In this document: in pieces, positions 34,959 through 36,628 of the stretch
How positions within the stretch are numbered: the first letter of the stretch is position 1
Layout of the letters: each line of letters opens with the position of its first letter
Assembly (NCBI RefSeq): GCF_003334405.1
Contig: NZ_QOWM01000001.1
Source: Escherichia coli
GTDB taxonomy: Bacteria; Pseudomonadota; Gammaproteobacteria; Enterobacterales; Enterobacteriaceae
Direction: 5' to 3' (one strand)
Length of the DNA: 64,000 nucleotides
Notes under the pieces: model-generated
What the model saw: the letters and a program-made list of their open reading frames with translations, nothing else
Told to the model about the DNA's origin: nothing
Database searches by the model: none
Position numbers and translations under genes: made by a program

Positions 34959-35143
34959 AGTGGCTCATTCACCGACTTATGTCAGCCCCTTCGGGACGTG
35001 CTACATAAAATACGAATGACGCACAACAAGGTGCCTGCCGTCCAACTTCTGATATCAGCGTAGCTATATCAACCATCGGGCGAAACGTCGAGTTAGGCAC
35101 CGCCTTATTCCATAACAAAGCCGGGTAATTCCCGGCTTTGTTG
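34959..35143 (+). ncRNA. glmY: GlmY small RNA (GlmZ/RapZ decoy controlling glmS)
   Basis: Transcript start agtggctcattcacc about 12 nt after the -12 GC; ends at terminator hairpin aaagccggg-taatt-cccggcttt plus U-run; length about 185 nt. Confidence 0.85.
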
Positions 35144-35200
35144 TATCTGAACTTCCCCTCGGTTAGCATCAGGCTATTCGCGTCTGACGAGAGTAACACC

Positions 35201-36628
35201 TTGAAACGCTGGCCCGTTTTTCCCCGCTCATTACGACAACTGGTAATGCTGGCATTTTTGCTGATTCTGCTGCCCCTGTTGGTGCTGGCATGGCAAGCCT
35301 GGCAAAGCCTGAATGCGCTTAGCGATCAGGCGGCGCTGGTTAACCGCACTACGCTTATTGATGCCCGGCGCAGTGAAGCGATGACCAACGCGGCGCTGGA
35401 GATGGAGCGTAGTTACCGTCAGTATTGCGTGCTGGACGACCCAACCCTGGCGAAGGTTTATCAAAGCCAGCGCAAGCGTTACAGCGAAATGCTCGATGCC
35501 CACGCAGGCGTGCTGCCGGACGATAAACTCTACCAGGCATTACGTCAGGATTTGCACAATCTGGCTCAACTTCAGTGTAACAACAGCGGTCCCGATGCTG
35601 CCGCCGCCGCACGTCTTGAAGCCTTTGCCAGTGCCAATACCGAAATGGTACAGGCCACGCGCACAGTGGTGTTCTCTCGTGGGCAGCAGCTTCAGCGTGA
35701 AATCGCCGAACGTGGGCAATATTTTGGTTGGCAATCGCTGGTGCTATTTCTGGTGAGTCTGGTAATGGTACTGCTTTTCACGCGGATGATTATCGGGCCG
35801 GTGAAAAATATCGAGCGCATGATCAACCGTCTGGGGGAAGGGCGTTCTCTGGGCAATAGCGTCTCGTTCAGTGGACCGAGCGAGTTACGCTCGGTTGGGC
35901 AACGTATTCTTTGGTTAAGTGAGCGCCTGTCATGGCTGGAATCCCAACGCCATCAATTTTTAAGACATTTATCTCATGAATTAAAAACGCCACTGGCGAG
36001 TATGCGCGAGGGCACTGAATTACTGGCTGACCAGGTTGTCGGGCCGCTTACGCCAGAGCAAAAAGAGGTGGTGAGCATTCTTGATAGCAGCAGCCGCAAT
36101 TTGCAAAAACTGATCGAACAACTGCTTGATTACAACCGTAAACAGGCGGACAGTGCGGTGGAACTGGAGAATGTTGAGTTAGCACCGCTGGTGGAGACAG
36201 TGGTTTCTGCTCATAGCCTGCCCGCACGGGCTAAAATGATGCATACCGACGTCGATCTCAAAGCAACAGCTTGCCTGGCGGAGCCAATGCTGCTGATGAG
36301 CGTACTGGATAATCTTTACTCCAATGCGGTGCACTACGGGGCTGAATCCGGTAACATTTGCCTTCGCAGCAGTTTACATGGTGCGCGGGTTTATATTGAT
36401 GTCATCAATACAGGCACGCCCATTCCGCAAGAGGAACGCGCCATGATCTTCGAACCCTTTTTTCAGGGAAGCCACCAGCGAAAAGGGGCGGTGAAGGGCA
36501 GCGGTCTGGGATTAAGCATTGCCAGGGATTGTATTCGCCGTATGCAAGGGGAACTGTATCTGGTCGACGAGAGCGGGCAAGACGTTTGTTTCCGCATTGA
36601 ATTACCGTCGTCGAAAAACACGAAATAA
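35201..36628 (+). CDS. glrK: sensor histidine kinase of the GlrK/GlrR (QseE/QseF) system
   Basis: HAMP/HisKA (LSHELKTPL) and HATPase domains; 475 aa if started at in-frame TTG 35201; track ORF starts at TTG 35138 inside the glmY terminator. Confidence 0.92.
   Translation: MKRWPVFPRSLRQLVMLAFLLILLPLLVLAWQAWQSLNALSDQAALVNRTTLIDARRSEAMTNAALEMERSYRQYCVLDDPTLAKVYQSQRKRYSEMLDAHAGVLPDDKLYQALRQDLHNLAQLQCNNSGPDAAAAARLEAFASANTEMVQATRTVVFSRGQQLQREIAERGQYFGWQSLVLFLVSLVMVLLFTRMIIGPVKNIERMINRLGEGRSLGNSVSFSGPSELRSVGQRILWLSERLSWLESQRHQFLRHLSHELKTPLASMREGTELLADQVVGPLTPEQKEVVSILDSSSRNLQKLIEQLLDYNRKQADSAVELENVELAPLVETVVSAHSLPARAKMMHTDVDLKATACLAEPMLLMSVLDNLYSNAVHYGAESGNICLRSSLHGARVYIDVINTGTPIPQEERAMIFEPFFQGSHQRKGAVKGSGLGLSIARDCIRRMQGELYLVDESGQDVCFRIELPSSKNTK

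Follow-up and report, generated by a model that had tools for sequence, protein, structure and literature searches.

The AUU start codon of infC is non-canonical and is discriminated against by IF3, which creates a feedback loop (IF3 autoregulation). Canonical non-AUG initiation in Escherichia coli uses GUG in ~14% and UUG in ~3% of genes, and reporter measurements place UUG and GUG output at 10-100% of AUG output (10.1101/063800, where the infC AUU start is also mentioned). The GUG of lacI is an example of a regulator whose weak start codon serves to set expression (PMC11445065). In their general model of start-codon evolution, Belinky, Rogozin and Koonin (2017; PMC5622118) describe an overall drive towards AUG, in which UUG becomes AUG no less often than it becomes GUG, and a model in which a sub-optimal codon is compensated by a strong conserved SD.

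The window considered here, the whole 64-kb stretch of E. coli DNA that was analysed, matches E. coli K-12 MG1655 (NZ_CP032667.1, 1157076-1221075) by genome comparison, with ~13 interior SNPs and with indels near both ends. Its 58 CDSs begin with ATG (52), TTG (5: yfiM, pgpC, tadA, mltF, and glrK), or GTG (1: eamB) (Table 1). The initial annotation had deduced these six non-ATG codons from product lengths; each of the six coordinates is an annotated CDS start, and the CDS annotation, the codons, and the product lengths agree. It had also proposed that the weak starts might be a deliberate low-expression feature, or that some might be mis-set. Compared with canonical GUG/UUG genes, the six are ordinary members, sharing an in-frame codon where conserved coding sequence begins, an upstream SD, formyl-Met initiation, and most likely an output below AUG; the sole oddity is that four of them are neighbours. 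The account developed below is, taken whole, probably correct: the annotated starts are used, output is lowered, selection has kept it so (with yfiM a recent exception), and the adjacency is coincidental.

Table 1. Start codons and neighbouring elements in the window (position 1 is the first letter of the 64-kb stretch)
Feature	Position	Strand	Details
yfiM CDS, 107 aa	1848..2171	-	Annotation; TTG 2169-2171; SD GGAGG 2179-2183
pssA terminator hairpin	2194-2210		Just upstream of yfiM
eamB CDS, 195 aa	10289..10876	-	Annotation; GTG 10874-10876; SD AGGAG 10884-10888
pgpC (yfhB) CDS, 211 aa	27749..28384	+	Annotation; TTG 27749-27751; SD GAGGAG 27737-27742
TATAATG, -10-like hexamer plus G	28405..28411	+	Final AT of the hexamer and the G make up in-frame ATG 28409 upstream of tadA, rejected as a start
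tadA CDS, 167 aa	28442..28945	+	Annotation; TTG 28442-28444; SD GGAG 28430-28433
mltF CDS, 518 aa	28942..30498	-	Annotation; TTG 30496-30498
GlmY sRNA gene (processed-form extent)	34959..35106	+	Rfam RF00128, 146 bits, full model 1-163
GlmY intrinsic terminator hairpin	35112..35144	+	14-bp stem, loop 35126-35130, 3′ arm CCCGGCUUUGUUGU
Two unused in-frame upstream TTGs (35138, 35141)	35138..35143	+	Paired in terminator 3′ arm
-10 element TAGCAT, weak sigma-70 qseEGF/glrK promoter	35164..35169	+	Conserved box
glrK/qseE TSS	35176	+	Literature; 25 bp 5′ of start codon (PMC6075780, citing primer extension)
SD-like GAGAG	35189..35193	+	7 nt 5′ of glrK TTG; weak
glrK/qseE CDS, 475 aa	35201..36628	+	Annotation; TTG 35201-35203

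The six genes truly begin with TTG or GTG; their starts are correctly annotated, mostly ancient, and previously known. Alternative in-frame starts were enumerated for all six, along with SD (anti-SD duplex) energies, and glrK, tadA, pgpC, and mltF were each compared across 63-78 species, all within the Enterobacteriaceae. In these four genes, three-base periodicity switches on exactly at the TTG, placing the in-frame start at the 5′ boundary of constrained coding; for yfiM and eamB, that boundary is marked by an orthologous start codon. It could be argued that at least one start is nevertheless mis-annotated, the real one being a nearby ATG (glrK 35246; tadA 28409 or 28475; yfiM 2120; eamB 10825; pgpC 27812) or, for glrK, the upstream TTG at 35138. 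Such in-frame alternatives do exist, and ATGs were given as the tadA and yfiM starts in the 2006 K-12 annotation. Moreover, the searchable published supplements hold direct initiation or N-terminal evidence for none of glrK, mltF, pgpC, and eamB: those of TRAINSPOTTER and of Salmonella riboproteogenomics contain none of these genes' starts, the INRI-seq supplement has an mltF entry for an extra internal site and nothing else on these genes, and a gene-specific literature search on the pgpC and mltF start codons returned nothing relevant. Against this, each competing start is excluded on grounds of reading frame, stop codons, conservation, motifs in the protein, or location relative to the TSS, as detailed for each gene below. 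The mis-annotation proposal is already largely refuted, and we consider it highly improbable.

For tadA, tetracycline ribosome profiling (TetRP) gave 47/57/30 at the TTG versus 0/0/0 at the old ATG, and the N-terminal peptide (COFRADIC), which begins at Ser2 with Met removed, supports the TTG start (PMC4909307). This peptide rules out both ATGs as the main start, although Met12 is invariant. PDB 1Z3A and engineered TadA variants share the TTG-start boundary. The upstream ATG at 28409 was rejected as a start: besides its zero TetRP signal, it has no SD (dG -1.9), its equivalent varies in frame, an in-frame stop intervenes in 30 species, and it forms part of an invariant TATAAT that stands at -35 to -39 from the tadA start in 77/77 species. 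This hexamer may be a promoter element; a consensus promoter scan around tadA did not call a promoter at it.

TetRP at yfiM was weak (0/16.7/2.3 at the TTG versus 0/0/0 at the old ATG; PMC4909307). A start at ATG 2120 removes the lipobox (LLSGC, lost with a start at ATG codon 17), and the orthologous codon at the TTG position is itself a start codon in all seven other genera (ATG in five, GTG in two). In eamB and mltF, in-frame stops lie directly upstream (a TAA two codons upstream of the eamB GTG; a TAA immediately 5′ of the mltF TTG), and there is no close downstream start. The first eamB ATG is codon 17, within a stretch conserved across genera; the GTG is common to five Enterobacterales genera (including Salmonella, Yersinia, Kluyvera, and Klebsiella) in a small sample, with ATG in Aeromonas. 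The first 40 codons of mltF are free of any other ATG, GTG, or TTG, its signal/anchor sequence requires the TTG start, and the start is TTG in 73/78 species and CTG in 5. The pgpC start is TTG in 74/78 species and GTG in 1; among the remaining three, one (L081) has a TTG one codon upstream and two carry neither call. Its catalytic motif, DxDxT, occupies codons 11-15 and would be removed by a start at 27812, which excludes the ATG of codon 21; a conserved RR (codons 5-6) precedes the two GTG codons, 7 and 8.

A hairpin in the RNA that would sequester the SD of mltF was also considered and rejected as unsupported. The stem reaches only ~-5 kcal/mol, with z = -1.94 in a 96-nt context; variation breaks pairs, compensatory changes are absent, and Rfam gives no match.

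For glrK, the upstream alternative involves the preceding sRNA gene. The hairpin at 35112-35144 is assigned as the GlmY terminator because it follows the Rfam GlmY match: the sRNA gene ends in a stable G+C-rich hairpin (dG -23.4 kcal/mol, z = -7.5) and then a T-rich tract, and both the stem and the CTTTGTTGT tail are conserved across the family in the leader alignment. (A simple consensus terminator scan around glrK did not call the GlmY terminator, because the T tract is interrupted and lies partly within the stem.) Read-through from GlmY into qseE is reported to be virtually absent (PMC6075780). As the initial annotation had observed, the TTG at 35138 sits in this hairpin; the fold pairs it in the 3′ arm. 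It is in frame with glrK, 21 codons upstream of the annotated start, and is followed by a second TTG at 35141. Both lie upstream of the published TSS and have no SD (dG -4.3 and -3.9, respectively). The suggested check of upstream-codon conservation in other enterobacteria went against this TTG: among species, the terminator TTG and the glrK start are separated by distances that represent every reading frame, and in-frame stops occur within 19 codons upstream of the start in about half of them. TTG 35138 was rejected as the glrK start on these grounds: terminator pairing, position 5′ of the TSS, and unconserved frame. The two UUGs are mere terminator 3′-arm sequence, absent from the glrK mRNA. 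The downstream ATG at 35246 fares no better, being Met in 44/68 species, with codons 1-14 under coding constraint; conservation by codon position passes from 0.56/0.55/0.57 upstream of the annotated start to 0.84/0.96/0.65 downstream.

The alternative starts that look attractive here arise as side effects of other signals: the terminator T-tract (glrK and yfiM) and the TATAAT-G sequence (tadA). Such side effects are a caution for automated start calling, and the annotation of this region can be trusted. The suspicion that some starts were mis-set did not survive: no case was found, and comparative data, sequence logic, or published initiation profiling (tadA, yfiM) back all six.

The proposed order of events at glrK is as follows. 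GlmY ends at its strong intrinsic terminator, and a weak sigma-70 promoter follows directly. From this promoter (-10 at 35164-35169, TSS at 35176), transcription would yield an unstructured leader of 25 nt, whose SD is poor, leading to the UUG start at 35201. The TAGCAT box is exact in 48/67 species, the rest having TAnnnT, and it ends 30-31 nt 5′ of the glrK start codon in 55/67. The TSS lies 7 nt after the box, so a -10 hexamer properly spaced from a mapped TSS is present; the K. pneumoniae TSS was mapped just downstream of the equivalent box (PMC3415461 suppl. 5). A possible -35 element, TTGTAT at 35141-35146 with a 17-nt spacer, has 4/6 matches, and its position is unconserved in clades with insertions. 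RNA folding finds the leader unstructured, and the GAGAG motif forms an anti-SD duplex of only -3.5 kcal/mol, whereas 81% of the window's ATG genes have a stronger one; the leader alignment shows that a motif of GAGAG/GAGAC type has been conserved. (The consensus promoter scan found no recognisable -35/-10 consensus pair for qseEGF/glrK, and this absence agrees with the published description of the promoter as weak; PMC6075780.) QseE/GlrK is reported to be expressed at a very low level (PMC6075780).

Are the weak starts kept by selection? Conservation alone is not proof of selected weakness, because start-codon identity is equally conserved in the ATG genes of the same loci, which served as the control. 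(The apparent non-conservation of the glrR ATG is a one-codon indel artefact of ungapped mapping.) The argument for selected weakness rests on the direction of switches, nearly all of which occurred in glrK and tadA. The glrK start is TTG in 58, GTG in 10, and ATG in none of 68 species; the tadA start is TTG in 64 species, GTG in 13, and never ATG. Reconstruction on a rough single-gene NJ tree places six switches between TTG and GTG in each of these genes across the Enterobacteriaceae, and none to ATG. By parsimony, glrK, tadA, and pgpC together account for at least 13 first-base changes, every one of them an exchange of T and G, with no change to A. Set against the pan-prokaryote ratio of published switches (43 from UUG to AUG versus 35 from UUG to GUG; PMC5622118), this absence of ATG switches has P ~3e-5, or 0.008 counting only 6 events, in a comparison for which gamma-proteobacteria are described as atypical in UUG/AUG asymmetry (Belinky et al., PMC5622118). 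In neutral non-coding sequence, UUG changes to AUG about as often as to GUG (722 versus 659; PMC5622118), and against these rates P is ~7e-5.

That last comparison bears on a reading in which the starts are right and the non-ATG codons are neutral leftovers in weakly expressed genes, ATG merely not having arisen. The yfiM start, which varies freely among ATG, GTG, and TTG, fits such drift, and start-codon selection is weak overall and weakest in poorly expressed genes (PMC5622118). However, drift would have to explain why none of the 13 or more first-base changes in glrK, tadA, and pgpC reached A. Moreover, the first start-codon base is T in 62/63 species for pgpC and in 72/77 for mltF, whereas neighbouring non-coding positions are 40-70% conserved. 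We regard neutral persistence as unlikely. Selective maintenance is the preferred reading: the comparative data support maintenance of the non-AUG start in glrK and tadA, and selection has probably maintained it in pgpC, mltF, and eamB as well. Within E. coli, 61-mers carrying the glrK start mutated to ATG or to GTG had no exact match in 5,263 genomes; the start is monomorphic, and a population test therefore cannot separate avoidance of ATG from avoidance of GTG.

The suggestion of deliberate low expression thus fared unevenly. It holds up for glrK and tadA, with at least 12 TTG/GTG switches, none to ATG, and with QseE scarce; it is plausible for pgpC, mltF, and eamB; and it fails for yfiM. 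The yfiM TTG is specific to Escherichia, whereas five of the seven other genera have ATG, and it therefore does not qualify as an old feature that has been maintained; the non-AUG start represents a recent state particular to this lineage. Low expression by design is also not uniform among the six, because the SDs of yfiM, pgpC, and eamB are strong.

All six genes have an SD 5-10 nt upstream, and only weak matches are found for glrK and mltF (AGAG, dG -2.9). The SDs of yfiM (-9.3 kcal/mol), eamB (-9.1 kcal/mol), and pgpC (-8.6 kcal/mol, with an invariant GGAG) are among the strongest in the window and partly offset the weak codon; that of tadA is -6.1 kcal/mol. UUG and GUG would pair less well with the initiator tRNA and so lower the initiation rate, and this weakness, combined with each gene's own SD strength, would set a low output. 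On this scheme glrK and mltF would be doubly weak (codon and SD), tadA intermediate, and pgpC, yfiM, and eamB would combine a weak codon with a strong SD. The weak starts most likely keep protein output low. We infer both selection for weak initiation itself and the extent to which each codon reduces output.

These arrangements recall the described systems to different degrees. Like lacI with its GUG, glrK encodes a low-copy regulator, is weak in promoter, SD, and start codon alike, and has retained its non-AUG codon. The effect of the lacI codon on expression and fitness is reported to have been measured, whereas for glrK, tadA, mltF, and pgpC it is deduced from comparative data only. The infC AUU offers the likeness of a deliberately poor start codon that limits, and also regulates, synthesis of a protein; it differs in that the UUG and GUG codons of the six genes are canonical, and feedback is neither known nor indicated. 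The genes yfiM, eamB, and pgpC fit the Belinky, Rogozin and Koonin model, each having a sub-optimal codon compensated by a strong conserved SD. In contrast, glrK and tadA run against the average trend reported there, interchanging UUG and GUG repeatedly and never reaching AUG. The weak TTG/GTG starts were already known, and the existing picture is unchanged. The genes nonetheless provide a small, concrete set of examples for the view that certain genes are kept from leaving a sub-optimal start codon, and glrK and tadA are candidates for testing the cost of excess sensor kinase or tRNA deaminase.

Is the TTG cluster more than chance? The chance model takes TTG as 2.4-4.35% of starts: the lower bound is our own, and published values are 3% for E. 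coli and 4.35% pooled over model bacterial genomes (10.1101/063800). For a fixed window, five or more TTGs in 58 genes have P = 0.013-0.11; for some such window within a 4300-gene genome, P = 0.94-1.0. Five TTGs among 58 genes are unremarkable genome-wide. Four TTGs in five adjacent genes (pgpC, tadA, mltF, [purL ATG], glrK) have a genome-wide P of 0.006-0.057, calculated post hoc and assuming independence. This run is mildly unusual and most likely a coincidence, since the genes belong to separate transcription units and have unrelated functions.

The run might instead be a functional unit: a selected neighbourhood in which synthesis from pgpC, tadA, mltF, and glrK is jointly limited, and perhaps modulated, at start-codon recognition, with output co-tuned through the levels of initiator tRNA or initiation factors. 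If so, the state of the initiation machinery would be coupled to tRNA editing, to GlmY/GlrK envelope signalling, and to the turnover of murein and envelope lipids. The low P under independence speaks for this, as do the age of the four TTGs, all common to the Enterobacteriaceae, and the envelope function of three of the four products. However, the observation was made post hoc, and the true probability would be higher should TTG be overrepresented in genes of low expression, which themselves cluster. The four genes are spread over both strands, belong to separate transcription units, and have differing SDs and unrelated biochemistry; a shared sequence element was not seen; and because UUG counts as a canonical start, no UUG-specific factor is known. 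Of the alternatives weighed here, co-tuning is the least probable, with scarcely any likelihood. Coincidental adjacency is the reading retained. The GTG count departs from expectation in the opposite direction: the window holds one, versus ~8 expected (P ~0.002, fixed window).

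The 58 annotated coding sequences begin with ATG in 52 cases, TTG in five, and GTG in one. The six non-ATG starts named in the initial annotation (TTG for yfiM, pgpC, tadA, mltF, and glrK; GTG for eamB) are exactly the annotated ones, agree in coordinates and product lengths, and are all present in the current RefSeq annotation. The codon census, the glrK reading frame, and the terminator fold described below confirm the cluster in full. It is also already known: the six are typical UUG- and GUG-initiated genes; tadA and yfiM had their starts revised in the 2014 K-12 record, changes that tetracycline ribosome profiling (TetRP) bore out; and earlier publications describe the promoter of glrK, the terminator arrangement there, and the low expression of the gene. 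Only the family-wide switch analysis and the remark on adjacency are new. Gene order is kgtP, yfiM, pssA ... pgpC, tadA, mltF, purL, glmY, glrK (qseE), qseG, glrR, glnB ... trmJ. A 5-kb piece around the glrK start finds matches in 5,426 of 5,426 complete E. coli genomes (identity to K-12 MG1655, 100%), and NZ_CP032667.1 1157076-1221075 corresponds to the full window at every base except for about 13 interior SNPs plus indels near both ends.

Start codons and associated features (window positions)
Feature	Position	Strand	Remark
yfiM start	2171	-	TTG
pssA terminator-like hairpin	2184-2210	-	CCCCGTCCTGTACGGGG + T tract
Alternative yfiM TTG	2192	-	in frame
eamB-yfiE pair	10289-11860		LysE family, divergent LysR
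eamB start	10876	-	GTG
pgpC start	27749	+	TTG
Rival tadA ATG	28409	+	11 codons upstream
tadA start	28442	+	TTG
Internal mltF TTG	~30364-30366	-	codon 45
mltF start stretch	30472-30513	-	-15 to +27, CAGAGAATTAACTAATTGAAAAAATTAAAGATTAATTATCTG
mltF start	30498	-	TTG
GlmY	34959-35106		Rfam match
GlmY terminator hairpin	35112-35144		14 bp
TAA limiting glrK frame	35126	+
Upstream glrK TTGs	35138, 35141	+	in frame
TAGCAT box	35164-35169
glrK transcription start	35176		PMC6075780
glrK start	35201	+	TTG
Downstream glrK ATG	35246	+
qseG start region	36787-36795		in-frame GTG at 36787

The suggestion that some of these starts could be mis-set is rejected: the alternatives fail on conservation, protein motifs, stop codons, transcription start sites, or TetRP. 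The case is most direct for tadA, where published ribosome profiling and N-terminal proteomics, both proposed in the initial annotation as checks, place the start at TTG. TetRP re-mapped the gene to this codon, which lies 33 nt past the 2006 ATG (signal 47/57/30 at TTG versus 0/0/0 at ATG; PMC4909307), and COFRADIC, an N-terminal peptide method, recovered a TadA peptide matching the TTG start (PMC4909307). Trypsin cannot have made this peptide, because the preceding residue in the longer reading frame is Leu. In the rival ATG, the A and T are the end of a TATAAT hexamer and the G is the base after it; all 77 species examined have this hexamer, at positions -35 to -39 relative to the tadA start. 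Its ATG is in frame with tadA in some species only, an in-frame stop intervenes in 30, and a check of Shine-Dalgarno (SD) energy found no SD for it. With zero TetRP signal as well, it is discarded. Crystallized TadA (1Z3A, which begins M-L-SEVEF) and engineered TadA variants have the N-terminal boundary of the TTG start, and the codon is TTG in 64 species and GTG in 13.

For glrK, the frame is open upstream as far as the TAA, and two further TTGs lie within it. The first of these had been placed inside the GlmY terminator, and folding of 35105-35150 bears this out: the hairpin (dG -23.4 kcal/mol; z = -7.5) is the GlmY terminator, and both TTGs are paired in its 3' arm. Transcription begins 25 bases upstream of the annotated start (PMC6075780), 7 nt past a TAGCAT box. 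Among 67 distinct Enterobacteriaceae sequences, 48 have the box exactly and nearly all others have TAnnnT; in 55 of the 67, its end lies 30-31 nt ahead of the start codon. The stretch between terminator and start contains indels, placing the distance in three different frames (24, 22, and 13 species), and in-frame stops occur within 19 codons upstream in about half of the species. All this leaves TTG 35138 outside the mRNA, held in a stem, devoid of an SD, and not conserved in frame, and it is rejected as a start. The downstream ATG fares no better: it encodes Met in just 44 of 68 species, and codons 1-14 (K-R-W-x-x-F-P-R-S-L-R-Q-L-V), which it would exclude, are under coding constraint, with protein-level conservation and synonymous variation. 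Mean conservation per codon position rises at the annotated TTG from 0.56/0.55/0.57 to 0.84/0.96/0.65, and at this codon 58 species have TTG and 10 have GTG. Folding of the leader from the transcription start showed no significant structure. Drawing on earlier mapping, Göpel and Görke report that read-through from glmY into qseE is virtually absent and that QseE is barely detectable: a global proteome study with counts of 11 molecules per cell for QseG and 36 for QseF missed it (PMC6075780).

In Klebsiella pneumoniae, the mapped start of yfhK (glrK) transcripts lies just 3' of the same CCTCAGTTAGCAT sequence (PMC3415461 supplement). The older MGH 78578 record (NC_009648) annotates the yfhK start 5 nt from this site, giving 479 rather than the 475 residues of E. 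coli (PMC3415461 supplement); the annotated start there probably lies a few codons 5' of the true one. Near the next gene, a GTG lies two codons ahead of the annotated qseG ATG, and in vitro INRI-seq reported a CTG initiation site 9 nt upstream of yfhG/qseG (PMC9825163, supplementary file 6).

The pgpC TTG follows an invariant GGAG (dG -8.6). An ATG at codon 21 is ruled out, since the protein would lose its catalytic DxDxT motif (codons 11-15), and a conserved Arg-Arg (codons 5-6) precedes the GTGs at codons 7 and 8. Of 78 species, 74 begin the gene with TTG and one with GTG; among the other three, one relative's locus (L081) visibly has TTG one codon upstream. An NsrR ChIP peak at yfhB/pgpC (in CFT073, summit 64 bp from the start codon) and lowered expression under NO stress in a CFT073 triple mutant (PMC5320621) indicate transcriptional control besides the TTG start.

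In mltF, TAA directly precedes the TTG, and the first 40 codons contain no other ATG, GTG, or TTG, so the signal/anchor sequence can be produced from this TTG alone. TTG stands here in 73 species; the five species of the Klebsiella oxytoca group (K. grimontii, spallanzanii, oxytoca, michiganensis, and indica; loci L059, L062, L065, L067, and L073, position ~10001) have CTG. In these five, TAT or CAT takes the place of the upstream TAA, and the frame runs on without a stop for over 50 codons, passing an ATG at -27 and an ATT at -3, both in frame; initiation may occur at CTG or ATT, or yield an N-terminally extended protein. Across 74 Enterobacteriaceae sequences, nucleotides around the E. coli start hardly vary, even at the synonymous sites of codons 1-8. 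An imperfect inverted repeat here (CAGAGAATTAA/TTAATTATCTG) forms a weak RNA stem (about -5 kcal/mol), with no compensatory changes among the 74 sequences and no Rfam match; a protein-binding site or AU-rich initiation enhancer therefore seems more likely than a hairpin. INRI-seq located an additional in-frame TTG initiation site in vitro, 132 nt inside mltF (PMC9825163, supplementary file 6).

The yfiM TTG follows GGAGG (dG -9.3), and the 2006 ATG is rejected, being past the lipobox cysteine. Profiling is less decisive here: the TetRP signal is weak at TTG (0/16.7/2.3), with none at the old ATG (PMC4909307). The same codon, compared in seven other genera, is ATG in Enterobacter, Pluralibacter, Cronobacter, Shimwellia, and Kluyvera, and GTG in S. 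bongori and C. koseri. Together, these features show that the position is secure and the TTG an Escherichia peculiarity. Directly ahead of the SD is the pssA hairpin, whose T tract holds the alternative TTG, an arrangement matching that of glrK and the GlmY terminator; interrupted T tracts give rise to spurious in-frame TTG candidates.

Are the weak codons maintained? ATG genes at the same loci keep ATG too (purL, acpS, pdxJ, yfhL, lepB, rnc, and era unchanged; eight ATG/GTG switches in recO, one each in yfhH and glnB), so conservation is the rule and proves little alone; more can be learned from which way the codons change. On a neighbor-joining tree of mltF, Fitch parsimony gives at least six TTG/GTG switches in glrK, at least six in tadA, and one in pgpC, plus one TTG-to-CTG in mltF; there are none to ATG. 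Among prokaryotes, UUG-to-AUG switches number 43 versus 35 UUG-to-GUG (in non-coding DNA, these triplets give 722 versus 659; Belinky et al., PMC5622118). By these ratios, 13 switches with none to ATG have P ~3e-5, or 0.008 if six independent events are credited, on a crude tree, with 12 of the 13 events in two genes and pan-prokaryotic reference ratios. SDs of yfiM, eamB, and pgpC rank among the strongest 10-12% in the window, resembling the compensation pattern of Belinky et al. (PMC5622118); that of tadA is average, and those of glrK and mltF are among the weakest 10-20%. The initial annotation considered weak starts a possible deliberate low-expression feature. In our reading of these comparisons, weak initiation appears to be a selected property of glrK and tadA (12 switches, none to ATG) and plausibly of mltF, pgpC, and eamB; for yfiM, with its Escherichia-only TTG, it appears not to be. 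Judging from protein roles, low output may be favored for a sensor kinase held well below its response regulator (glrK), a deaminase with potential off-target editing (tadA), a murein-cleaving enzyme (mltF), and a cysteine exporter (eamB).

The clustering itself probably is coincidence. TTG starts make up 3% in E. coli and 4.35% pooled over model bacterial genomes (10.1101/063800); at assumed rates of 2.4-4.35% (the former our own lower bound), a fixed window of 58 genes would hold five or more with P = 0.013-0.11, and such a window is almost certain somewhere in a 4,300-gene genome (P = 0.94-1.0). Four of five consecutive genes (pgpC, tadA, mltF, and glrK) have TTG, for which the genome-wide P is 0.006-0.057, a post hoc statistic that assumes independence and equal TTG probability for every gene. 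If poorly expressed genes are richer in TTG and clustered, the true probability is higher. GTG is scarce (one seen versus about 8 expected; P ~0.002 for a fixed window, ~0.1 allowing ~72 windows per genome).

The single GTG gene, eamB, has TAA two codons upstream and AGGAG 7 nt ahead of the start. The GTG is common to Salmonella, Yersinia, Kluyvera, and Klebsiella; Aeromonas has ATG. Enterobacter, Pluralibacter, Cronobacter, and C. koseri lack the eamB-LysR pair between srmB and grcA; in a Kluyvera sp. it is absent beside grcA, with a PTS gene in its place. It lies elsewhere in the genome in Yersinia, Kluyvera cryocrescens, Klebsiella, and Aeromonas. From these differing contexts (loci L084-L087 and L089-L093), the module behaves as a movable accessory unit.
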